19,728 nt of DNA from the NCBI RefSeq assembly GCF_003334255.1, contig NZ_QOWU01000070.1; one strand, given 5' to 3'. Below are positions 545 to 18,375 of the stretch, piece after piece; position 1 is the first letter of the stretch; each line of letters starts with the position of its first letter. Source of the stretch: Escherichia coli (lineage in GTDB: Bacteria; Pseudomonadota; Gammaproteobacteria; Enterobacterales; Enterobacteriaceae). Below the pieces are notes generated by a model. That model saw nothing but the letters and a program-made list of their open reading frames with translations, had not been told where the DNA came from and did not search any database. The position numbers were made by a program, and so were the translations under genes.

Positions 545-3256
545 CTACATTCCAGGTGATGGTGGCGTCCACTCATTATCCTGAACTGGAGTATAAGATG
601 TGTCATTCCCCCCGGATATGCTTTTCTGTTGCCTGATATATTCGTGGTAGTACTGTTCACTACGCTGACGATGTAAATCCACATCCGGGCGGCTGATTAC
701 AAAGTGTCCATTTCCGGTTATTCCAGCTGCATTATGCCAGGCCACCATTTCCGCAAATACATCATTAAACTGTTGATATGAGCCTTCCGGTTCAAAACCC
801 ATTCCAGGCTCACGATCAAACAATACAGGAGCAATCAGATTCAGCTTATCCACCAGTTCATTTCTGTCCTGATGATGGTAGAACACCACACGGTCCCCAT
901 AATCCACACAGACTAACTCGCCATTCCTCCGATCACGAAAACGCACACTGCCATCTTTCTGCAGACGGGCTTCGAGAACGCCAGTGTCTTCATAAAGTGG
1001 AGTTCCTCCCGGTTCACAGATAATCACGCAGCGGTCGGCATTCGTTGTTCGTCGCTTGTCTTTGCGACGATCACGATAATCCCAGCCACGTAACTGTGAT
1101 ACTGCAGCTCTGTCTCCCTGTACCGCCTGTTGCTCCACCCACTGCCGGTAGGACAAAGGATACCACTTACCCTCCGCAATCAGTGACAACCGCTCTTCCT
1201 TCACACTCTCCTTCAGCCTGATCAGCGCCTGCATACGCTGCACTTCCGCAATATGGTAATGCAGCTTACGCAATTGTGGATCCCGGAACTGCACGCGGAT
1301 ATACGCCTTGCGCCGACGGCAGGCAGCATGAATTTCCCGTAACCGTTCTCCGTAACGTAAGTCGGGTTTACGCCAGTGCTCCTTCCATGCAAGATAACGC
1401 GCGCGCAAATCTTCCCGCGCAGCTGCACGGGCTTCACGGCGTTCACGACGCAGTACAGGATCGCGCCGGAAGCCGGGCTCCACTTCATCGCTGGCAGCAA
1501 GTTCCGGATTGTAGCGACATTCAGGCTTCACCCGTTCAAATATATCTGCACCTGCGATCTCAAATGGCCCTGCCTGCGGCTCAGCCCTGGATAATGTCAA
1601 ATCCGGGTGGATACTGCTGGCCTTCACTGGTGTCAGCTCATGATTAAACGCATCCACAATCACAAGACCATGATGCTGTTTCTGCAACATAAGCCCTTTA
1701 CGCGCAAACATCTCATGGCACGCCTGCCAGCTGAAATTCCCGCCCGCGATCATATCTTCAATCAACGACTCACACTGAACAGTCGTGTACCCCCACAGAC
1801 TTTCCTTATCAGAAAACAGTTCGCGCTTTATTGCTCCCTGTGGACCTGTCCCCATCCGCATACGATACCATTCGTAATCACTGACAGCCCGGGTACCGGT
1901 ACTGTGCCCCCGGAATCGTTCTCCGGGGACGACCTGGGTAAAAATATCCTTCGGTACAGGCTGCCATCCGCCTTCCTGATCCTGCATGTAATCCAGCGTC
2001 ATTAACGGCCACACACTGTCTGCACGTACTGGTGTCTGTTGTTTATCAAATCCATCATGCAGTACCAGATGCCCGTGCTGGATCCCCATCCATAATCCAG
2101 CCTTTGCCAGAGTTCTGTGCACATCCAGGCAACTTTCCAGCTCACCATTTCTCGCCATTTCCGGTAAGCGTTCGGCAAAATGACGGCAGGCGTACTGTTT
2201 CAGACTCTCCGTTTCTGCCACTTTTTCCGGCCGGATATCAACGTTTATCGCTTCCGGATCATAACGACCGGGTGTCCCCACCTGACTGAAAATATCTGTC
2301 GGTACAGGCTGATATTCTCCCAGTTTCCGCCCCAGTCTTTCAGCCGTCCATGACGGGCCGAACGAACTGAGCACAACACCTTCCCGCGATCTGTCCCAGC
2401 CATCCTTCACCACCAGTTCTCCCTCCTGCATCGTGATATACAGACCATCACGGGCCAGCCGTTTATGCAAAGACAACCAGTCCTGGGCGGGTTCTTCACG
2501 CAGCCCGGCAATCGACATCTGCGCAATATATTCCCTGAAGGTCTGCTTTTTCCCGCGTCGCCAGGCATTACGGCGCTCACGTACCAGCGCTGTTTTACGC
2601 ACAATACGGTTGCCCGGTGCATGCACAAAACACCCGTTATCCGGTGCAAATCCGTGCTTAAGTTCAAGTTCACGGCATGCACGACTGAGTTTTTCCTTGC
2701 TCCACGGAAGGCAATTGATATAGCCGGTTTCAGGATGAACACGATTCACTGCAACATGTACATGCAGGTTATCGGTGTCTGTATGAACGGCAGCTACATA
2801 CTGATGTTTTGAAAGTTCAAGGGATTTCAGTGTGTGACGTACGCAGTCAAAAAGCTGCTCAGGACGCGGGCTTTCATGCGCAGGCCAGGAAAGAATGTAG
2901 TGAAAAACAGGGTCTGTATCATCTTTGGAAAAATGAGCAAGGTCTGCTGCTTTCTGCATTTCTTCAGCCGCAGATTCAAGAGACAAACAGTTATGAAAGC
3001 AGGTCACACCATAGAAATTCACCCACTGACTGCCGTCTTCCATTACATCAATCAGGGATACAAATTTTTCGTTACGCAGGCGTGTGGCATAGTCAACAAG
3101 CCGTCTGAAGCGGTTACGGTGCGGGACCTCACCTTTCATTTCCGGGTCTGGTTTGAGTTCATCATCCTGCACATCATCCCGCACAGACGTGTACGCAATC
3201 AGGTCTTCAAAGGAAGACCTTCCGTCACGTCTTTTGGGCGGAATGATAGCATTCAT
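545..3256 (-). CDS. nikB: MOBP-family conjugative relaxase (NikB-like), 903 aa
   Basis: Relaxase histidine motif HTDTDNLHVHVAVNRVHPETG (HxDxxxxHxH type). Size and N-terminus (MNAIIPPKRRDGRSSFEDL) fit my memory of IncI1 R64 NikB (~900 aa). Lies directly downstream of a nikA-like gene and oriT. Confidence 0.88.
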   Translation of the reverse strand: MNAIIPPKRRDGRSSFEDLIAYTSVRDDVQDDELKPDPEMKGEVPHRNRFRRLVDYATRLRNEKFVSLIDVMEDGSQWVNFYGVTCFHNCLSLESAAEEMQKAADLAHFSKDDTDPVFHYILSWPAHESPRPEQLFDCVRHTLKSLELSKHQYVAAVHTDTDNLHVHVAVNRVHPETGYINCLPWSKEKLSRACRELELKHGFAPDNGCFVHAPGNRIVRKTALVRERRNAWRRGKKQTFREYIAQMSIAGLREEPAQDWLSLHKRLARDGLYITMQEGELVVKDGWDRSREGVVLSSFGPSWTAERLGRKLGEYQPVPTDIFSQVGTPGRYDPEAINVDIRPEKVAETESLKQYACRHFAERLPEMARNGELESCLDVHRTLAKAGLWMGIQHGHLVLHDGFDKQQTPVRADSVWPLMTLDYMQDQEGGWQPVPKDIFTQVVPGERFRGHSTGTRAVSDYEWYRMRMGTGPQGAIKRELFSDKESLWGYTTVQCESLIEDMIAGGNFSWQACHEMFARKGLMLQKQHHGLVIVDAFNHELTPVKASSIHPDLTLSRAEPQAGPFEIAGADIFERVKPECRYNPELAASDEVEPGFRRDPVLRRERREARAAAREDLRARYLAWKEHWRKPDLRYGERLREIHAACRRRKAYIRVQFRDPQLRKLHYHIAEVQRMQALIRLKESVKEERLSLIAEGKWYPLSYRQWVEQQAVQGDRAAVSQLRGWDYRDRRKDKRRTTNADRCVIICEPGGTPLYEDTGVLEARLQKDGSVRFRDRRNGELVCVDYGDRVVFYHHQDRNELVDKLNLIAPVLFDREPGMGFEPEGSYQQFNDVFAEMVAWHNAAGITGNGHFVISRPDVDLHRQRSEQYYHEYIRQQKSISGGNDTSYTPVQDNEWTPPSPGM

Positions 3257-3641: not shown

Positions 3642-3700
3642 GGTGGTAATCGTATAGCCGTGCGTGCGCGGTTATACGATTACACATCCTGTCCCGTTTT
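3642..3700 (+). other. oriT: oriT: inverted repeat (arms 3646-3656 / 3673-3683) followed by nick-core-like ACATCCTG TCCCG
   Basis: 11-bp inverted repeat GTAATCGTATA / TATACGATTAC, then 8 bp later ATCCTG (3686-3691) resembling the MOBP nic core (RP4 ATCCTG|C); sits between nikA and the leading region. Nick position 3691|3692 is inferred by analogy only. Confidence 0.6.
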
Positions 3701-4253: not shown

Positions 4254-5102
4254 TCAGACTCGTGGCGGCAATGCACCAGGATAATGACGTGCAATAATAT
4301 CATTCAGTTTTTCAACAAGGTCAGGACACTTAAAGACAATATGTACGGTCCCTTTCTGGTAGCCACGCACCGTAAAATATTCCCCTTCAAACAACTCACC
4401 GATATTGTCGCCGTTCCCGAGATATTCACCATACTGCGCCCCGATGCTGTTCCTGAAGTCAGGAACGTTGCGTCCCTCCAGCAGATAAAACGGACGTACC
4501 AGGTCATCCAGTGCCTCCCGTCCGCTGCAGTCCAGCGTCACACGCCCGTTACTCCAGCGGTACAGCAGGTTTTCAATAATGATTTTCTTGCCCAGACGGC
4601 AGGGATTATTGGTTCTGTAATCCCATGACAATTTCCGGTAGACATCAATCAGTCCCTGTTCAAATGTCTGCATCTTGCTGGCATTCAGATGGCGAAAAGT
4701 TGCCAGTACATTGTCCAGGGTGATTTCAGGACAGGTGTCGCTCATCAGCTGGCTGTTCCACTCATCACGCTGGCATGAACTCATGAAGGTGTACATCCCC
4801 GTATCCGCCATCAGGCGGTCCCAGATTTTACGGTCGGCAAGACGGGTGATATTCTTTTTTGCTTCTTCCGGTTTATCCATGCATCGAACGGAGTCAGTCA
4901 CGCAGTCTTCAAACCCGTAGAGAAAAATGTCACCAGAAGCATCGAGCAGAATCCTGCGTGCTGTCGCCAGGCATTCCATCGCCTGCATGAACAGTGCAAT
5001 ACCTTCGTTACGCTGCGCGATAATGCGGTCGATGGCCACAGACGGAATAATATCTGTCGTGCCGGCAGTATTCAGGTCAGCAGTGGGTAAAGTCTGATTC
5101 AT
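4254..5102 (-). CDS. Hypothetical protein, first gene of the leading region (possibly DUF4942-like), 282 aa
   Basis: Long ORF; ATG at 5100-5102 with SD GAGGAG 8 nt upstream (the track start is a GTG one codon earlier). No methyltransferase, HExxH or nuclease motif seen by eye. The family assignment is from memory and weak. Confidence 0.75.
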   Translation of the reverse strand: MNQTLPTADLNTAGTTDIIPSVAIDRIIAQRNEGIALFMQAMECLATARRILLDASGDIFLYGFEDCVTDSVRCMDKPEEAKKNITRLADRKIWDRLMADTGMYTFMSSCQRDEWNSQLMSDTCPEITLDNVLATFRHLNASKMQTFEQGLIDVYRKLSWDYRTNNPCRLGKKIIIENLLYRWSNGRVTLDCSGREALDDLVRPFYLLEGRNVPDFRNSIGAQYGEYLGNGDNIGELFEGEYFTVRGYQKGTVHIVFKCPDLVEKLNDIIARHYPGALPPRV

Positions 5103-5152
5103 CACATTGTCTCCTCATCGTCACGACTGCCGGGTCAGCCAGGTCATTTCCC

Positions 5153-5463
5153 GGAGGAGCGAAGCTCCTTCTGCCGTCCGGGTCTTCGGGGATTTCCCCG
5201 CAGTGGACCTTTCCGACGGGGGACGCTCACCACGTCACGGGGCAGTTGTCCGGGGGCAGACGCAAAAGTTTTTGACGCCTGCGGCAAAAAGTTTTGTGGC
5301 TGGTACATCTCTCCCCTGGACGACTGAAACGGGATGTGGTCGTGTATGTACCCCCGGAAAGTCCGTCTGCGGAGAACAGGCCGCAGTGCGGCGGCAGACA
5401 GGCAGAGACAGCTGCGCCATCAGGCGCAGTGGCATTACACACCGTCAGGTGTGCAGGGAGCGC
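5153..5463 (+). promoter_or_regulatory. Structured GC-rich element resembling a single-stranded-DNA promoter (Frpo/ssi type), copy 1
   Basis: No credible coding despite many overlapping ORFs; dense hairpins (GGAGC gaa GCTCC, CGGGGAttTCCCCG, CTGCGCC atca GGCGCAG, CACACC gtca GGTGTG); contains TTGACG inside a hairpin; paralogous to 8317-8626. Confidence 0.6.
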
Positions 5464-5578
5464 CGCATCCGGCGCGACTGAAGAAAAACGACGGCACAAC
5501 AATGGCATGTGGTGGTCACTGGCACACCACTCCCGCACAGGTGAAAACAGAGAAAACCGCACGACATCTGCAATTAAA

Positions 5579-5963: not shown

Positions 5964-6122
5964 CTACTGCTCATCAGGAAACAGCTTTTTCAGTTCTTCA
6001 CCGGAAAGTCCCGTGACCTCCTGAATCCGTTCCGGCGGCCAGCCCATATTCCAAAGCCGGCAGGCTATTTCCCGCGCCACTTCAAGTGCGCCTTTTTGAA
6101 TAAGACGTTCTGCAATCGTCAT
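5964..6122 (-). CDS. Free-standing RpnS-like small protein (paralog of the Rpn C-terminal domain), 52 aa
   Basis: MTIAERLIQKGALEVAREIACRLWNMGWPPERIQEVTGLSGEELKKLF parallels the C-terminal tail of the adjacent Rpn protein; own ATG at 6120-6122 with SD CAGGAG; separated from rpn by a terminator hairpin. Confidence 0.6.
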   Translation of the reverse strand: MTIAERLIQKGALEVAREIACRLWNMGWPPERIQEVTGLSGEELKKLFPDEQ

Positions 6123-6146
6123 GCTGTTTGCTCTGCTCCTGCTGAC

Positions 6147-6172
6147 AAAAAAGCCCGGGATTTTGCCGGGCT
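6147..6172 (-). terminator. Rho-independent terminator immediately after the rpn stop codon
   Basis: Minus strand: stem AGCCCGG / CCGGGCT (6152-6172) followed by TTTTT (6147-6151). Confidence 0.6.
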
Positions 6173-6184
6173 TTGTGGTTCTCA

Positions 6185-7147
6185 TCAGTAAGTGATTTTC
6201 TTCAGTTCGTCATCGGAAAGTCCGGTAGCCTGCTTAATCTGCTCCGGCGTCATCCCCATTTTCTGAAGCTGGCACGCAATAGCCAGGGCTTTTTCAAGCG
6301 CTCCTTCCATGCGTCCTTCCATGCGTCCTTCCATGCGTCCTTCCATCCTGCCTTCCTGGCGACCTTTTTGCTCAAGACGTTCTGCGATAGTCATCAGTTT
6401 ATCCTCATGCTGCGGCAGACGCTCAGCCAGCGCCCGCATAAATTCCGGTGATACAGAGTCCCCTGCGTTAACGATGTAATGAATCAGAACACGCACCTGC
6501 TCGTCTGAAATTTCCACCATGACCTGCGGGAGTTTGTCCAGCAGCTCCATCATGTCACGATGGCGGATATGCTTCATCAGCAGCGTCAGTGCGGCCATCC
6601 GGCGATGGTTCATGATTTCATTGTCATCAACGACAGTGATATCAACCAGCGGAAACGGCTTTGTGTATATTTTAGCCGCAAGTGCCGGATTCTCAAAACA
6701 GTCCAGCCAGTTCATGCTGTACGGGTACGGGCTGCGCTCACCGTGATAGAACAGCACCGGAATCACCAGTGGCAACGTTTTGTGCTGCTCCAGATGTCTC
6801 TGCATCGCCGCCACACTGTAGCGTAACATGCGAAAAGGCATGTACAGATTTTCTGTGCTCTGGTGCTCGATGAGCGTATAAACATAGCCGTCTTCACCCC
6901 CGGTGGTTTTCACGCTCCAGAGGATATCGCTGGCGTACTGATGCAGGTCCGGCTCTACAAAGGTGGCGGGTTCCAGCTTCAGCGTGGACAGGTCGCACAA
7001 CTGCCGGTACTCCGCCGGAAGATGCAGTTCCAGAAAATCTCTGGCGACGTCGGGATTCGCCAGGAACGACCGGAACGCGGCATCATGCGGCGTGGGCGTT
7101 GTGGTGGTTTTCTTCTTACTCACTTTCCCTCCATGAGTTATTATCAC
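6185..7147 (-). CDS. Rpn-family (YhgA-like, PD-(D/E)XK) recombination-promoting nuclease with internal RpnS-like start
   Basis: N-terminus TPHDAAFRSFLANPDVARDFLELHLPAEYRQLCDLSTLKLE and the core ASDILWSV ... YVYTLIEHQS closely parallel E. coli RpnA as I recall it. C-terminal repeat linker and tail are present; an internal ATG at 6392-6394 with SD GAGGA would give a 69-aa C-terminal product. True start may be the GTG at 7121-7123 (SD GGAGGG). Confidence 0.8.
   Translation of the reverse strand: MIITHGGKVSKKKTTTTPTPHDAAFRSFLANPDVARDFLELHLPAEYRQLCDLSTLKLEPATFVEPDLHQYASDILWSVKTTGGEDGYVYTLIEHQSTENLYMPFRMLRYSVAAMQRHLEQHKTLPLVIPVLFYHGERSPYPYSMNWLDCFENPALAAKIYTKPFPLVDITVVDDNEIMNHRRMAALTLLMKHIRHRDMMELLDKLPQVMVEISDEQVRVLIHYIVNAGDSVSPEFMRALAERLPQHEDKLMTIAERLEQKGRQEGRMEGRMEGRMEGRMEGALEKALAIACQLQKMGMTPEQIKQATGLSDDELKKITY
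6302..6349 (-). repeat. In-frame 12-bp tandem repeat (3 perfect + 1 variant unit) encoding (EGRM)n in the Rpn linker
   Basis: Plus-strand unit TCCTTCCATGCG repeated head-to-tail; translates on the minus strand to RMEG repeats (QEGRMEGRMEGRMEGRMEG). Confidence 0.9.
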
Positions 7148-7204
7148 CGGAATTATACGCCCGTGCGGTACGCACCTGCCACGGGCAGAAAGAAGGGAAC
7201 AGAT

Positions 7205-7534
7205 TTACAGTCGTGTATACAGCCCGGTATCCCGGGTAAAAAGCCACTGCAGCTGATCGCAATAAATCCCCTCGTGCTCCGATATCTGCGCTATCCGGGA
7301 ACCCTGTTTGCTGTAAAACGTCACCGTGTAATCATCGGCAAACGTTAATTTGATCCGGACAATATTAATATTATTTTTCGCAAAATATGACGGTAACTGA
7401 AAGCATAAACCGCATTCACCATTATCATCAAAATAAGCCAGATTTTTAGCGCCGGTCATAACAACAAATCGCTGGCTCCCCAGCTGTCCGAGAATTGTTT
7501 GAGCGACATGTTCAGCATAACTCATATTCTTCAT
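7205..7534 (-). CDS. Hypothetical protein, 109 aa
   Basis: ORF in an AT-rich block behind structured element copy 2; weak SD; no recognisable motif. Confidence 0.6.
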   Translation of the reverse strand: MKNMSYAEHVAQTILGQLGSQRFVVMTGAKNLAYFDDNGECGLCFQLPSYFAKNNINIVRIKLTFADDYTVTFYSKQGSRIAQISEHEGIYCDQLQWLFTRDTGLYTRL

Positions 7535-7600
7535 TCTAATATCCTGACGAGAGATATGCCGCAGGAGACACGACTACCTGCGACACTGATAATTGGGGAC

Positions 7601-7918
7601 TCAAGTTCTGTTACGCACAACTGCAAAGAGATATTTTTTCTGGCTTATAACTTTGCATTTTATTAAACGGGCTATTTCCCTGTAGTCTTTATTAAGAGGA
7701 ATATGAATCATGTCCCCGTTCAGTTCATTAAAAACGCACCCTTTTATATATAACGTCTCATTCATGATAAAACCATACATTGAAAAATGCTGATTTTCAT
7801 ACTCTTTACTGATTAAGTGAAAATATCCCTCCAGCAGTTCCTGCGGGGGATGTGGATCAATCATCCAGTTATCACCAATATATGAACATACTTCTGTTAT
7901 CGTTGTCTGAAATGTCAT
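7601..7918 (-). CDS. Hypothetical protein, 105 aa
   Basis: ORF with SD GGGGG 5 nt upstream of the ATG; strongly AT-rich relative to neighbours; no recognisable motif. Confidence 0.65.
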   Translation of the reverse strand: MTFQTTITEVCSYIGDNWMIDPHPPQELLEGYFHLISKEYENQHFSMYGFIMNETLYIKGCVFNELNGDMIHIPLNKDYREIARLIKCKVISQKKYLFAVVRNRT

Positions 7919-7975
7919 GTTACCCCCTGAAGTAAAAACTTATGATGTGAAATGGGGCGTTTCCGCCCCCTGGTA

Positions 7976-8110
7976 TCACATGGCGTAGCCTCTGAGGTGG
8001 TCCAGCCACCAACAGAACTCGTGCCATTCGTCGCCTTTCATTGGCGGAATGCGTGTGGGTTGTCCTTTGACAACCGCATCAGCAAGGGTTACGATTTGTC
8101 TGAGTGACAT
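7976..8110 (-). CDS. Hypothetical small protein, 44 aa (MSLRQIVTLADAVVKGQPTRIPPMKGDEWHEFCWWLDHLRGYAM)
   Basis: ATG at 8108-8110 preceded by AAGGAT; the longer 75-aa ORF in the track would read through the upstream GC hairpin motif. First gene downstream of structured element copy 2. Confidence 0.5.
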   Translation of the reverse strand: MSLRQIVTLADAVVKGQPTRIPPMKGDEWHEFCWWLDHLRGYAM

Positions 8111-8316
8111 AATCAATATCCTTACAAAGGTTGTTGATATCCGTGCAAAGGGGTGTTCCCGCCCCCCTGGCACACCCACTAACCTCCTTTTCCTTCCCGG
8201 CATTCCCTCACGCTGTGCGTGATTTACATCGTTCTCACCTCCTTCACTGGGTTGTTTCTGTTCGCTAAAAAATGGTCAGGTTGTTAAAGAGCGGCACGGT
8301 ATGTTCAGGCATCTTC

Positions 8317-8626
8317 ACAGGAGCGAAGCTCCTTCTGCCGTCCACTTCTTCGGGGTTTCTCCCGCTGTGGACCTTTCCGATGGGGGCCCGTTTACCGCCT
8401 CACGGGACAGCTGTCCGGGGGCGGACGCAAAATTTTTAGCCGGGTTCATGGCTAAAAATTTTGTGGCCGGTGCATCTCACCCTGGACAGATGGAACGGGA
8501 GGGGGTTACGTCTGCCCCCCGGAAAGTCCACAGCGGGAAACAGGCCGCAGGGGTGGCGGCAGGAGGGAGGACTGCTGCGCCATCAGGCGCAGTTTCCTCA
8601 CACACCGTCAGGTGTGCAGGGAGCGC
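8317..8626 (+). promoter_or_regulatory. Structured GC-rich element resembling a single-stranded-DNA promoter (Frpo/ssi type), copy 2
   Basis: Shares blocks with copy 1 (GGAGCGAAGCTCCTTCTGCCGTCC, GTGGACCTTTCCGA, GTCCGGGGGC-GACGCAAAA, CCCGGAAAGTCC, CTGCGCCATCAGGCGCAGT, ACACACCGTCAGGTGTGCAGGGAGCGC). Contains a perfect 14-bp hairpin CAAAATTTTTAGCC / GGCTAAAAATTTTG (8428-8463). Confidence 0.6.
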
Positions 8627-9015
8627 AGGTCACGGCGCGACAGGGGCGGCGCGACCGGAACGGTCGCTGCAAGCCGGGTTTTCACGCATCGGACCGTAGC
8701 GGCAGCCCGAAACCGCGCCAGCGGGTTCGGCGGAGACTGGCGGGTGCGCCAGCAGCTGCCCGTCGGAGTCGGGCCTGACGACCGGATGCCGCCAGGCAGC
8801 CGGGAGCCGAAGTGGGCGCAATAAAAGACAGCCAGAAACGGTGACAGTGTCACGGAATATCACTCCTGTTCCCTGCATACAGCCATACACTACCTTCTGA
8901 CCGGAAAGCCGGGCCGGCAGCGCCGCAGGCGCTGCACCCCGCGTTTCCGGCAGGCGTCAGCCTGCCTGGGGTTTTCGCGCGGGCTGACAGGCGGCCTCCA
9001 CCGCCTGCCCCTGTA

Positions 9016-9672: not shown

Positions 9673-10098
9673 TCAGTCAAGTGCAGCGTAAATCGCGTTG
9701 CATTCGGGGTGAAATTCGATGTGGCTCCACAACTGCGCATCGCGCATCCTGTACAGGTGTGTCAACCCTGCATCCCCGCTGTCGTGGTACAGCCACAACT
9801 GGCGGTTAATCACAAGGGAAGTCAAAATGATGCCTGCGGCATCAGCACTCACGGTACGGTCAAACCAGTTTTCACCGTTGACCAGATGAAAACGGTCGCC
9901 ATCCGGCATCATGTAACCGCCACCGTCCGGCAGGCGGATGAAGTGCCAGAATCCGCCTTCATATTCCGGCATCATTTTTTTCGCCAGCGCGTATACAGAC
10001 GCTTCGGCATACAGAAAATCCAGGCCAAACAGGTAAGGCAGAAAAGACAGACGGTCGCACTCTTCAACGTTCAGAGTGACAGGTTTCGCATACTGCAT
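9673..10098 (-). CDS. ArdB/KlcA-family antirestriction-like protein, 141 aa
   Basis: Start MQYAKPVTL with SD GGAGG 6 nt upstream (the track ORF begins earlier at 10179). Motifs FLPYLFG, EGGFWHFIRLPDGGGYMMPDGD and SADAAGIILT match my recollection of the KlcA/ArdB/YfjX family. Confidence 0.7.
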   Translation of the reverse strand: MQYAKPVTLNVEECDRLSFLPYLFGLDFLYAEASVYALAKKMMPEYEGGFWHFIRLPDGGGYMMPDGDRFHLVNGENWFDRTVSADAAGIILTSLVINRQLWLYHDSGDAGLTHLYRMRDAQLWSHIEFHPECNAIYAALD

Positions 10099-10140
10099 GG
10101 GATTTCCTCCGTTGTTCACATATTCCGCGACACCGGGCGG

Positions 10141-10364
10141 TGCCGTGCCTCCATCTTTGCCGGGCCTGCAGGGTTGCAAGGGCGCAAGGGAAGCCGCAGC
10201 CTGACGCGCACGGCTGACGGGAGTTGGAGGGTGAGACCGCGAAATCTGAGCGGGTGAACGACCGGAAAATCACGGCAGACGGGAAGGAGGGACCGGGTGA
10301 CCGCAGCGGTTCACCTTACCTTGCAACCCGCCCGCAGAAGCCCGGCTACGATGGAGGCACGGCA
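10141..10364 (+). promoter_or_regulatory. Long imperfect hairpin (about 225 bp) upstream of the klcA-like operon; possible third ssDNA promoter/ssi element
   Basis: Outer arms TGCCGTGCCTCCATC (10141-10155) and GATGGAGGCACGGCA (10350-10364) are exact reverse complements; inner arms GCCGGGC...GGTTGCAAGG / CCTTGCAACC...GCCCGGC also pair; nested palindromes CGGGTGAACGACCGG and GGTGACCGCAGCGGTTCACC. Confidence 0.5.
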
Positions 10365-10511
10365 CAGCCCGCACACGACGCTGAGGCCACATAACTGAAA
10401 ACCCACAAGGCCATGCCCCGCATGGCCGGGTAAAGCGGAGCCTGCGGCGACATCCTTTTGCTCTTTCCGGGGACCGGCTGGAAAAGGCGGAGATTTTCCC
10501 CGCCAGCGTCA

Positions 10512-12157: not shown

Positions 12158-13129
12158 TTACTCCTCTTTGAAAGCCGCGATAGCTTCAACCAGTGCTGTC
12201 TGTGGCGACTCCATCATCACTACTTTTTGCCCAAGATGGTGCCATGCCGTTTTTATCGAATCATAGATCAACGGGGCCCCACCACCGACAACATAAACAC
12301 GATTCACATGATGGAAATCACCGAGCTCATTGACTACTTGCTCCCCCAGACTGGCAATAGCCCCCTCAATGGTATTAAGGACCAGATCAGTTTTTGTTTC
12401 GTCATTTATAACCTGCCGAACAAAGTCCGGGTCATTACGACGTTTAATCAATTCATCTGCAACGAGGAAACTGGTATCACTGGATGCCATGCGCAATGCA
12501 CTCATTGCAGCTTTCGTAACTGAAGACACACCAATGCCAGAATTACCATGAATGGCACTTACAGAGTCAAATTGACCAACGATAACACCAACATCAAGCG
12601 TAGTGCCGCCAATATCAACTACCAGCGATTTTTCGAACTGACCAACTTTATCCATGACCAGACGAGAAAACACAGCTGGCAATGATTCAGGCATCACATC
12701 AACGTGTTCAATGGTGAAAACATCGCCTTTATTAAGACGAATCGGCCTCATTAAATTCTCAATTTTACGCTGAATGTTGAGTTCATTTTTTTGACACTCT
12801 TTCGTGTAGAACTCACTGATAGGCAAAGTCACAGTCAATGATACAGGCTGAGGCGCTAATCCACTATTCAGTAAAGCGTGATGCACAGCTAACAGGTTAA
12901 CATCCGTATATTGATACTCAATATGAGTCGTAAGAATAGATTGGTTACTAACTTCATCATACGTGTATTTTTTACCATCCAGTTCATAGTTAAATGTCTG
13001 GCGAATCCCTAACCCGTCAACCTTCCATCCATGACGAAATGAGTTTTGCGACAACGACTTACAGATTTTCCCATTGTCATTCCATGCCAACTTGATTGTT
13101 GTTGAACCATCATCGCAGTATACGTTCAT
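12158..13129 (-). CDS. stbA: Actin-like plasmid segregation ATPase (ParM/StbA family), 323 aa
   Basis: N-terminus MNVYCDDGSTTIKLAW parallels R1 ParM (MLVFIDDGSTNIKLQW), with phosphate motifs DIGGTTLD and VVGGGA; SD AAGGGG upstream of the ATG. Confidence 0.85.
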   Translation of the reverse strand: MNVYCDDGSTTIKLAWNDNGKICKSLSQNSFRHGWKVDGLGIRQTFNYELDGKKYTYDEVSNQSILTTHIEYQYTDVNLLAVHHALLNSGLAPQPVSLTVTLPISEFYTKECQKNELNIQRKIENLMRPIRLNKGDVFTIEHVDVMPESLPAVFSRLVMDKVGQFEKSLVVDIGGTTLDVGVIVGQFDSVSAIHGNSGIGVSSVTKAAMSALRMASSDTSFLVADELIKRRNDPDFVRQVINDETKTDLVLNTIEGAIASLGEQVVNELGDFHHVNRVYVVGGGAPLIYDSIKTAWHHLGQKVVMMESPQTALVEAIAAFKEE

Positions 13130-13357
13130 CTATAGCCCCTTAAATACTCAATCTGAGTAAATCACTGTTTCTGGTTGCAAGGTAATACTCAATTTGAGCA
13201 CCATCATAGTTATGAAATCACAAAACACAAGTATTATTTATTACATCACATGACTCACTTCATATTTCATACTTCATAAATGTGAACGCATATTGACACC
13301 TCAGGTTACCGTGTCAAAATATCATCATACTTCACACATCACATTTATGAGGTTGCA
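13130..13357. promoter_or_regulatory. AT-rich divergent promoter / centromere-like repeat region between stbA and parA
   Basis: Direct repeats AATACTCAATCTGAGTA (13143-13159) and AATACTCAATTTGAGCA (13183-13199), plus repeated ACTTCATA / ACATCACAT motifs; lies between divergently transcribed partition operons. Confidence 0.55.
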
Positions 13358-17379: not shown

Positions 17380-17497
17380 AGGAGCACCTCCGTTCCATGA
17401 TGTAAACGTGACACAGCTTATTGTTATTGATTATTATTATCATGCTGTGATTATGTTGTCACGCACCGGTACACGATAACAATAAAGGAGAAACCAG

Positions 17498-17845
17498 ATG
17501 AAACTGGATATATCTGTAAAGTATTTACTGAAGAGCCTGATACCAAGCCTCATTATTCTTACAGTTTTTTATCTGGGATGGAAAGATAACCAGGAAAATG
17601 CAAGAATGTTTTATGCGTTCATCGGATGCATTATCAGTGCCATTACTTTTCCTTTTTCAATGAGGATAATACAGAAAATGGTAATAAGGTTTACAGGGAA
17701 AGAATTCTGGCAAAAAGACTTCTTTACAAATCCAGTTGGCGGAAGCTTAACTGCTATATTTGAATTATTCTGTTTCGTTATATCAGTTCCTGTGGTTGCC
17801 ATTTACTTAATTTTTATATTCTGCAAAGCCCTTTCAGGAAAATGA
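17498..17845 (+). CDS. Colicin immunity protein of the small E1/Ia/Ib type, 115 aa (likely colicin Ib-type)
   Basis: Strong SD AAAGGAG; small hydrophobic protein with three predicted membrane segments; convergent with and 18 bp from the end of a colicin pore-domain ORF, the classical pore-former colicin-immunity arrangement. Confidence 0.65.
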   Translation: MKLDISVKYLLKSLIPSLIILTVFYLGWKDNQENARMFYAFIGCIISAITFPFSMRIIQKMVIRFTGKEFWQKDFFTNPVGGSLTAIFELFCFVISVPVVAIYLIFIFCKALSGK

Positions 17846-17862
17846 AAGGGCATCATTATGTG

Positions 17863-18375
17863 TCAGATACCAATAAGTTTATTGACCTGCTCAATAAACT
17901 TATCATTAACAAGCGCACTCACAGCAGCCATAATAATTGCAAAACCCAGAATACCTACAGGGGTTCCCAGCATGACGGAAAACGTCCATGCTGTAACTGC
18001 TGAAGCAGCTCTTCCTGCTGCCAGTGATTCAAGTTTTACAAAAAATGGACGCCAGTTGTCCGTTTTTACAGCCTTTTGTAACTCCACAGCAACATCATAA
18101 CGATCAATAACTTTTCCGGTAAAACCAAATGCCTTACTGAACAGCTTAAAATTCTCCGCCATATGGACCTGATTAATAGCTTCCAGGGCTTTAGAAATGG
18201 CCATGCGATCTTGTATGCTATATTTCTTGTTCAGATTATTACGGAATTTATCAAAAGCGTTCAGTGCATCATCCACACTCTTAATTTGTTTCCCTTGAGA
18301 TACAGAAGCCAGCTCCTTAGAAAGTTCGGATGCTTGTTTACCCGAGTAGGCAGCCTGGCGGCTGCGGCTTGTCAT
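17863..18375 (-). pseudogene. Pore-forming colicin, C-terminal channel domain only (170 aa); N-terminal translocation and receptor domains absent
   Basis: TDNWRPFFVKLESLAAGRAASAVTAWTFSVMLGTPVGILGFAIIMAAVSALVNDKFIEQVNKLIGI matches the hydrophobic helical hairpin and C-terminal LIGI ending of channel-forming colicins as I recall them. An in-frame TAA three codons upstream of the first ATG shows the rest of the gene is missing. Confidence 0.7.

Follow-up and report, generated by a model that had tools for sequence, protein, structure and literature searches.

A block of three small genes at positions 7205-8110 of a 19,728-nucleotide stretch of Escherichia coli DNA (contig NZ_QOWU01000070.1 of assembly GCF_003334255.1; hereafter the window) was analyzed in this study. 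The window comes from the oriT-proximal region of an I-complex (IncK2/Z-like, MOBP, MPF_I) conjugative plasmid, and the genes, which encode proteins of 44, 105 and 109 amino acids (orf44, orf105 and orf109), lie directly behind a single-stranded DNA (ssDNA) promoter element of the Frpo/ssi type. They probably constitute a zygotically induced leading-region operon whose small products would act by binding in the new host. The block itself is a composite of two parts with separate histories, namely a unit that carries orf44 and a cassette of orf105 and orf109.

The leading region and its ssDNA promoter elements

The core of the oriT nick region was read as ACATCCTG/T on the + strand (3684-3692), directly after a 14-nt inverted repeat and upstream of nikA and nikB, both of which are on the minus strand (nikB, 545-3256). 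This core is presumably the MOBP-type nick motif YATCCTG/Y. Because the motif is on the + strand, the + strand should be the transferred strand (T-strand) with its 5' end near 3692, and all coordinates above 3692 thus belong to the leading region. Between 4254 and at least 10179, nearly all family-supported open reading frames (ORFs) lie on the minus strand and read towards oriT, with the T-strand as template; the three ORFs of the block are located about 3.5-4.4 kb from the nick. The best public match to positions 7100-8700 was plasmid pECOED of E. coli ED1a (NC_011754.1; 99.6%), and its region homologous to the oriT part of the window carries MobA and relaxase annotations. From about 9210 onward the two sequences part ways: the window continues with a 140-residue DUF1380-like gene and a KlcA-like anti-restriction gene, and pECOED with umuDC in the opposite orientation.

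The sequence-only reading had placed the three genes directly downstream of the second copy of a structured element, and this was borne out. The element (copy 2; 8315-8643, + strand, 329 nt) is a homologue of Frpo3 of ColIb-P9 with a stable hairpin; the three ORFs were recovered with exactly the same limits, all on the minus strand, and are the first genes behind it, 0.2-1.1 kb downstream on its transcribed side and oriented for transcription from the transferred strand. With the sequences in Supplementary file 4 of Samuel et al. 2024 as the reference, copy 2 showed 96.7% identity over 331 nt to Frpo3/ssi3 of ColIb-P9, and copy 1 (5152-5480) showed 99.1% identity to Frpo1. The two copies are connected by direct repeats (5155-5478 with 8319-8641). 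In ssDNA folding, a long, imperfect hairpin of about 240 nt was obtained for the + strand of copy 2 (dG -123 kcal/mol, z = -11.6 against shuffled sequences), with inverted-repeat arms at 8329-8375 and 8523-8569; none of 100 shuffled sequences folded as well.

In the published list of Frpo candidates (Samuel et al. 2024), the T-strand is shown, and the sequences have at their 5' end CAT, the complement of the start codon of the downstream gene. The geometry of the window agrees with this listing, the genes being at lower coordinates on the minus strand. Copy 2 has three features of a class-1 ssDNA promoter: homology to Frpo/ssi, a hairpin in the transferred strand, and, on the leading side of nic, genes with the T-strand as template. 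For ssi1-3 of the IncI1 plasmid pESBL, which are "class 1 ssDNA promoters", transcription start sites are mapped and zygotic induction was shown; the operons headed by them are among those with raised expression 15 min after transfer (maximum about 500-fold; PMC12672017). A promoter scan of the minus strand from 7000 to 8900 found no sigma-70-like promoter, which is weak evidence.

In the proposed operon, an ssDNA promoter of the ssi3/Frpo3 type would be followed by a conserved leader, orf44, orf105, orf109 and rpn/rpnS. When the + strand enters the recipient, the hairpin at 8315-8643 would form the promoter, and transcription of the three genes, in the direction of oriT, would precede synthesis of the complementary strand (zygotic induction). 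In the first minutes of establishment, their products would bind proteins or nucleic-acid complexes of the new host stoichiometrically. Early expression is suggested by the homology to ssi/Frpo. Action by binding, and any target, are what we infer: stoichiometric binding is proposed because the predicted helix/beta-sheet sandwich folds are of the kind seen in chaperones, immunity proteins and small inhibitors, and because no catalytic domain was matched by any of the three proteins.

A hairpin of a second kind was observed at 10127-10457 (+ strand), with arms at 10134-10165 and 10340-10371 that are 91% complementary and an ssDNA fold with z -4.7. Located upstream of the KlcA/ArdB-like gene (9673-10179), it shows 79% identity to candidate "Frpo" 4' of Samuel et al. 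It is probably a "class 2" ssDNA promoter as described for klcA and ardA in pESBL. Behind Frpo copy 1, a DUF4942 gene (4254-5105, minus strand) begins after about 50 nt, with neither leader nor orf44.

Composition and authenticity of the three genes

The block had been described as AT-rich. This description fits orf105 and orf109, since the segment 7205-7950 has 40.1% GC compared with 50.6% in the window and 63% in the two elements; it does not fit orf44, whose GC content (53.3%) is like that of its neighbours. Third-position GC (GC3), used as the measure of codon composition, follows the same division: 57.8% in orf44, 35.8% in orf105 (GC 34.9%) and 46.4% in orf109 (GC 43.3%), against 55-64% in the other leading genes (GC 50-56%). 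Low GC is a trait of the families themselves, being 30-40% in orf105 relatives and 36-43% in enterobacterial YahA genes, the family of orf109. Equally AT-rich stretches occur elsewhere in the window (e.g., 12750-13350 and 17400-18300), so AT-richness is not unique to the block.

The substitution patterns indicate that all three ORFs are real genes under purifying selection. The ratio of nonsynonymous to synonymous substitution rates (dN/dS) is 0.13 for orf109 and 0.17-0.36 for orf105. For orf44, the proportion of nonsynonymous differences (pN) is 0.03-0.38 against a synonymous proportion (pS) of 0.6-0.9, with synonymous sites close to saturation. Given this selection, it is most improbable that the ORFs are chance or decaying frames devoid of function; such an origin would suit the facts that orf44 is unannotated in most records and that orf105 is interrupted or truncated in a few plasmids, but it conflicts with the conserved lengths and start and stop positions and with the high-confidence compact folds predicted for orf105 and orf109.

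The orf44 microprotein and its leader

The gene orf44 (8110 to 7976, minus strand; MSLRQIVTLADAVVKGQPTRIPPMKGDEWHEFCWWLDHLRGYAM) encodes a conserved soluble microprotein, as seen by tblastn, alignment and pN/pS. Full-length homologues of 43-45 residues were found by tblastn in 1,119 of 72,556 plasmids; 1,044 of the 1,119 are predicted to be conjugative, and the site has no annotated feature in most records. Hosts include IncI-complex, IncX4, IncI2, IncU and Klebsiella MOBP plasmids. Start, length, a C-terminal GY(A/E/S)M and 12 invariant residues are common to the homologues from IncX4, IncI2, IncU, Klebsiella MOBP and Providencia plasmids. A search in phages gave no match. A longer, 75-residue reading of orf44 was rejected, as the extension upstream of the MS(L/M)RQ start is not conserved. 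A Hok/Gef-like membrane toxin was also considered and rejected: the protein has no transmembrane segment, with a maximum of 0.47 for a 19-residue Kyte-Doolittle window and a grand average of hydropathy (GRAVY) of -0.25.

In IncX4, IncI2 and IncU plasmids, the orf44 homologue is the last gene, or one of the last, in a series of small genes transcribed in the direction of the relaxosome genes, and it often stands just before hicAB or relBE modules or genes of J-domain proteins. Among five contigs of these and related types (L002, L003, L018, L019 and L021), they recur near a J-domain (DnaJ-like) gene and a 180-residue hypothetical gene. J-domain proteins may be a recurring theme of leading regions, as the YahA gene of a Prevotella element (see below) is also beside a DnaJ-LPD29 gene. 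A search for a clean ssDNA-promoter hairpin upstream of the IncX4 operon with an orf44 homologue showed only moderate structure in that region (z -3.2).

Between the hairpin of copy 2 and orf44 lies a conserved 5' leader (8111-8314, minus strand), delimited by comparison of the window with copy B of the related contig L006 and by RNA folding; it contains a GC hairpin. A search of the whole window against Rfam, leader included, gave no match. Within the leader, a start-stop mini-ORF, ATG-TAA (8229-8224, minus strand), stands behind a strong Shine-Dalgarno sequence (AAGGAGGT), and both are kept in the homologous leader of L006 (about 8503-8528). The mini-ORF may be a translational or ribosome-loading device of the ssDNA-promoter leader. 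Directly after the orf44 stop codon is another GC hairpin with a GAAA (GNRA-type) loop (7950-7968, minus strand), which is terminator- or attenuator-like. Its U-tract is weak and broken in the window, compared with a clean U5 in the L006 homologue (L006 8774-8800), and the hairpin was not called in a terminator scan. It may represent an attenuator or a recombination junction. A weaker hairpin of similar kind precedes orf104, the orf105 counterpart, in L006 (5957-5980).

Alignment of related I-complex contigs (L005-L008) to the window clarified the origin of orf44. One Frpo copy of these contigs, located downstream of their rpn, matches the window from 8675 to 7950 at 81%; this span takes in the leader, orf44, with 95% amino-acid identity, and the GC hairpin that follows the orf44 stop codon. 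A different Frpo copy, upstream of orf104 in the relatives, is 93% identical to copy 2, but only down to window position 8235, and is followed by orf104 without orf44. Since the copy downstream of rpn includes orf44 and the one before orf104 does not, orf44 belongs to a promoter-leader-microprotein unit. The alignments thus indicate that recombination put this unit in front of the orf105-orf109 cassette in the present plasmid.

The orf105-orf109 cassette and the adjacent rpn module

The other part of the block is rare. Among the 72,556 plasmids of PLSDB, orf105 occurs in nine, and the block 7205-8110 was found in 10 of 5,426 complete E. coli genomes, plasmid-borne every time. In typical IncI1/B/O plasmids, the slot between the Frpo copy and rpn is filled by genes for proteins of 144 and 88 residues, which are GC-rich (58-59%); the 144-residue gene is present in 2,016 plasmids. 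Neither orf105 nor orf109 showed profile-profile similarity to either of these proteins. Comparison of the slots shows orf105 and orf109 to be a rare low-GC cassette that has replaced an unrelated GC-rich pair. The suggestion of separately acquired cargo made in the sequence-only reading is therefore retained for these two genes and dropped for orf44, which moves together with the Frpo/leader unit.

The slot appears to be subject to turnover. Both cassettes occur in tandem in L008 (2198-7736), in the order Frpo, 144-residue gene, 88-residue gene and a 68-residue remnant of the Rpn C terminus, then Frpo, orf104, orf106 and rpn; this arrangement suggests that cassettes are exchanged by recombination between Frpo repeats and rpn sequences. 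In NZ_CP116070.1 and NZ_CP145705.1, the block is found in two separate places with orf105 shortened to 95 residues, which indicates that an insertion interrupted orf105. A gene for a group II intron reverse transcriptase is located just upstream of a Frpo copy in L007 (3043-4710).

The next gene after orf109, in the same direction, is rpn (6185-7147, minus strand), which encodes a recombination-promoting nuclease of the Rpn family (TIGR01784 match, 7.5e-53) with four GRME tetrapeptide repeats, (GRME)x4, near its C terminus. Behind it is a free-standing ORF of 73 residues (5964-6185, minus strand) whose similarity to Rpn is limited to the C-terminal, RpnS-like part (positions 240-288 of the 292 in the RpnA profile, E 1.6e-4); direct repeats (D1 and D7) connect this ORF to the 3' end of rpn. 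This ORF could be a free-standing RpnS-like antitoxin, besides any intragenic one. Rpn proteins are toxic nucleases kept in check by small proteins, as known from the biology of the Rpn/RpnS toxin-antitoxin system (PMC10400941).

This neighbourhood raises the question of whether orf105 and orf109 are accessory parts of the Rpn/RpnS module, such as regulators or extra antitoxins. The restraint of Rpn by small proteins offers a precedent, rpn has the typical tetrapeptide repeats and is followed by an RpnS-like ORF, and the trio of orf104/105, orf106/109 and rpn is syntenic in two diverged plasmid lineages. Such a dependence is improbable, because the rpn module, including the 73-residue ORF, is kept in about 2,040 plasmids, of which some 2,000 have the unrelated 144- and 88-residue pair beside it; no rpn is located near the YahA genes of IncI2 and IncX1 plasmids, Prevotella elements or phages, and the orf105 homologue P0106 adjoins DUF4942, not rpn. 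Between the same two plasmid lineages, amino-acid identity is 54% for orf105 (dN 0.36) against 85% for orf109 (dN 0.08), and no relationship between orf105 and orf109 was detected by profile-profile comparison.

Families and predicted folds of orf109 and orf105

The sequence-only reading recognized none of the three proteins. For orf109 (7534 to 7205, minus strand), this no longer holds, as it is a protein of the YahA family. It matched phrog_9437 ("unknown function") with an E-value of 3.2e-25 (residues 10-109 against profile positions 3-98 of 98), and its full length shows 58% identity to an IncI2 protein named YahA in UniRef; for the protein P0011 ("YahA"), identity is 98% with the IncI2 gene and 58% with orf109. 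In an alignment of 52 sequences (89 homologues were collected), the invariant or near-invariant columns form two motifs, QLGGxRFxAMTGAK and YCDQLxxxFxxxTGLxTxL, both present in orf109. The AlphaFold2 model (predicted local distance difference test [pLDDT] 94.2) gives an alpha2-beta5-alpha sandwich.

Members of the YahA family are widely distributed in plasmids and phages. The family was found in 880 plasmids; in IncI2 and IncX1, YahA is the first in a leading-region run of small genes that read towards the relaxase. In a Prevotella conjugative element, its neighbours on the two sides are genes for a DnaJ-LPD29 protein and an NAD-dependent DNA ligase, and ArdC and a giant methylase-helicase are encoded close by. 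YahA was also found in 47 phage records, ranging from 44-kb siphophages to 287-kb Pseudomonas jumbo phages and including Sinorhizobium, Microcystis and Tunturiibacter phages. In the phage contexts examined, it usually stands among small early or replication-module genes, and once beside an orphan C5-methylase.

The protein orf105 (7918 to 7601, minus strand) is predicted to form an alpha-beta5-alpha sandwich (pLDDT 92.5). Its few relatives align over the full length at 40-54% identity with 18 invariant positions, and an exhaustive HMMER search of 1.84 billion representative sequences found only eight true relatives. A further match to a repetitive protein of 1,602 residues was judged to be spurious low-complexity similarity. 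Foldseek comparison with AFDB50 returned only uncharacterised enterobacterial relatives. The protein is an enterobacterial orphan whose predicted fold may be like that of type III secretion chaperones; among its neighbours (orf44, orf109, rpn and DUF4942), no secretion system or secreted substrate was linked to it. One homologue (P0106) is located just upstream of a DUF4942 gene in L009.

All three proteins are soluble and have no transmembrane segment, with isoelectric points of 6.4-6.7 and net charges of -0.3 to -1.2, and the modelled folds of orf105 and orf109 look compact and non-enzymatic. No family was found for any of the three in Pfam, NCBIfam or PADLOC, and sequence-profile searches of the PDB with all three families gave no useful relative. 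DNA mimicry of the ArdA/Ocr type was rejected given the near-neutral charge and the lack of a Pfam, PHROG or PDB match. Comparison with PsiB by hhalign gave probabilities below 1% for orf105 and orf109, and neither was assigned to PsiB (PF06290). None of the three had a sequence match to known anti-restriction, anti-CRISPR or SOS-inhibitor proteins; fold similarity was weak and generic only.

Possible roles in the new host

Anti-defence genes are strongly overrepresented in leading regions, and about one third of the top families there are uncharacterised (PMC11541004). It is possible, though the less favoured idea, that at least one of the three proteins is a dedicated anti-defence factor that binds restriction-modification, CRISPR-Cas, SOS or other components of recipient immunity. 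The genes stand directly behind an ssDNA promoter in the correct orientation, the content of their slot varies, as it does in anti-defence islands, one of the nearby genes encodes a KlcA/ArdB-like anti-restriction protein (phrog_10132), and orf105 is fast-evolving with a narrow host range. The anti-defence role is read from position, as it was in the sequence-only reading; that proposal survived the profile and structure searches in so far as they returned no clear homology to known non-defence proteins. The same searches weigh on the other side, for the proteins showed no sequence similarity to solved or catalogued anti-defence proteins, among them PsiB, and are not acidic. In addition, orf109 keeps 40-50% identity across phyla and occurs in jumbo and T4-like phages, unlike typical fast-evolving inhibitors of one system.

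Data from other leading regions bear on the same point. Samuel et al. 2024 listed a family of 465 members ("hypothetical/Uncharacterized") with UniProt hits "YahA" at rank 97, and so among the 100 largest, of the families enriched in leading regions (false discovery rate 5e-139, median position 12, T-strand orientation). This family had no similarity to anti-CRISPR or anti-restriction proteins, by sequence or structure, which again speaks against an anti-defence role. The spread of YahA across phyla and types of mobile element makes it less likely to be an inhibitor of one system, such as a typical anti-CRISPR protein, than a protein whose target is a universal component of the host or of DNA processing.

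A role in establishment or housekeeping outside immunity is about as likely as one in anti-defence and is likewise put forward with reserve. The proteins, especially orf109/YahA, would then take part in processing of the incoming strand (ssDNA protection, priming, complementary-strand synthesis or ligation) or reprogram host physiology. YahA homologues end phage replication modules, beside primase-polymerase, helicase and methylase genes, and the Prevotella gene has a DNA ligase next to it. Broad, slow-evolving conservation with an invariant MTGAK-type loop suggests a universal target, and the leading-region protein YfjB, reported to reprogram host physiology, provides a precedent for a non-immune function (PMC13370423). 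However, domain and profile searches found no nucleic-acid-binding or enzymatic domain, no gene partner of YahA was consistent across the contexts examined, and about 99% of related plasmids dispense with the cassette and have a different pair in the slot.

A zygotically induced operon of small binding proteins is the explanation preferred here. Since YahA is slow-evolving and occurs in plasmids and phages across phyla, orf109 probably addresses a conserved host or DNA-processing component, and since orf105 is fast-evolving and confined to Enterobacteriaceae, it probably has a lineage-specific partner. Several points weigh against this explanation. The stable hairpin between orf44 and orf105 could attenuate read-through. 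In MOB-P and MOB-F plasmids, the leading region is usually codon-adapted and has a higher GC content than the remainder of the plasmid (bioRxiv 2025.04.03.647016); the low-GC cassette is unlike this, which argues against strong selection for very fast translation. Induction of the operon in this plasmid type is suggested through homology to ssi1-3. Finally, orf109 is apparently a member of family 97 of Samuel et al., a link made by the shared UniProt name "YahA" only.

Significance

Uncharacterised small genes behind leading-region ssDNA promoters are a recognised category (PMC11541004), and the family of orf109 already has a name, though it is unstudied. New in this study are the orf44 family, the alternative non-homologous cassettes in the slot between Frpo and rpn, and the confident fold models. 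A bolder view, which is offered as speculation, is that orf44 represents an overlooked and almost never annotated family of leading-region microproteins, 43-45 residues long and spread over at least five incompatibility groups and more than 1,100 conjugative plasmids, and that YahA/orf109 is a protein of all kinds of mobile genetic elements (plasmids, conjugative elements and phages of small to jumbo size in several phyla) that neutralises a universally conserved host factor on entry. If true, each of the two would stand for a new class of effector, of establishment or of anti-defence, that is missing from current catalogues.

Leading regions decide the survival of resistance plasmids in the first minutes in a new host. 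The locus offers three delimited candidates for study: a conserved unannotated microprotein, a fast-evolving orphan, and a family shared by diverse mobile elements. Comparison of the alternative cassettes in a swap slot behind an ssDNA promoter could reveal the selection that acts on early plasmid genes. In practice, annotation would improve, since most records lack orf44, and the three genes could be shortlisted for defence-panel and interaction screens; if they should have no phenotype, the locus would be ordinary accessory content.

Comparison with known systems

Class I chaperones of type III secretion (CesT/SicP/SycE-like) and the FP domain of PI31/Fbxo7 are among the closest known systems. 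With PsiB, TriTu, CdiI and AcrIIA11, the predicted folds of orf105 and orf109 share a general two-layer alpha/beta class, along with small size. PsiB is itself a leading-region protein, zygotically induced, and a stoichiometric binder of RecA. ArdA/Ocr proteins have small size and leading-region or early expression in common with the three proteins; they differ in being highly acidic, compared with the near-neutral proteins of this locus, and have no sequence similarity to them.

The YahA protein of IncI2 plasmids is comparable to orf109 in its full-length alignment, all conserved motifs, leading-region location and orientation, whereas orf109 belongs to a distinct subgroup found in I-complex plasmids. 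The operons headed by ssi1-3 in ColIb-P9 and other IncI1 plasmids (e.g., ssi followed by ssb/psiB) correspond to this locus in their near-identical promoter (96.7-99.1%), their orientation towards oriT and their position in the first few kilobases transferred, and they too consist of small, mostly uncharacterised genes. The genes behind copy 2 in the present plasmid, however, are not ssb, psiB or ardA: the usual pair of 144 and 88 residues is swapped for a low-GC pair, and a 44-residue gene is added to the leader.

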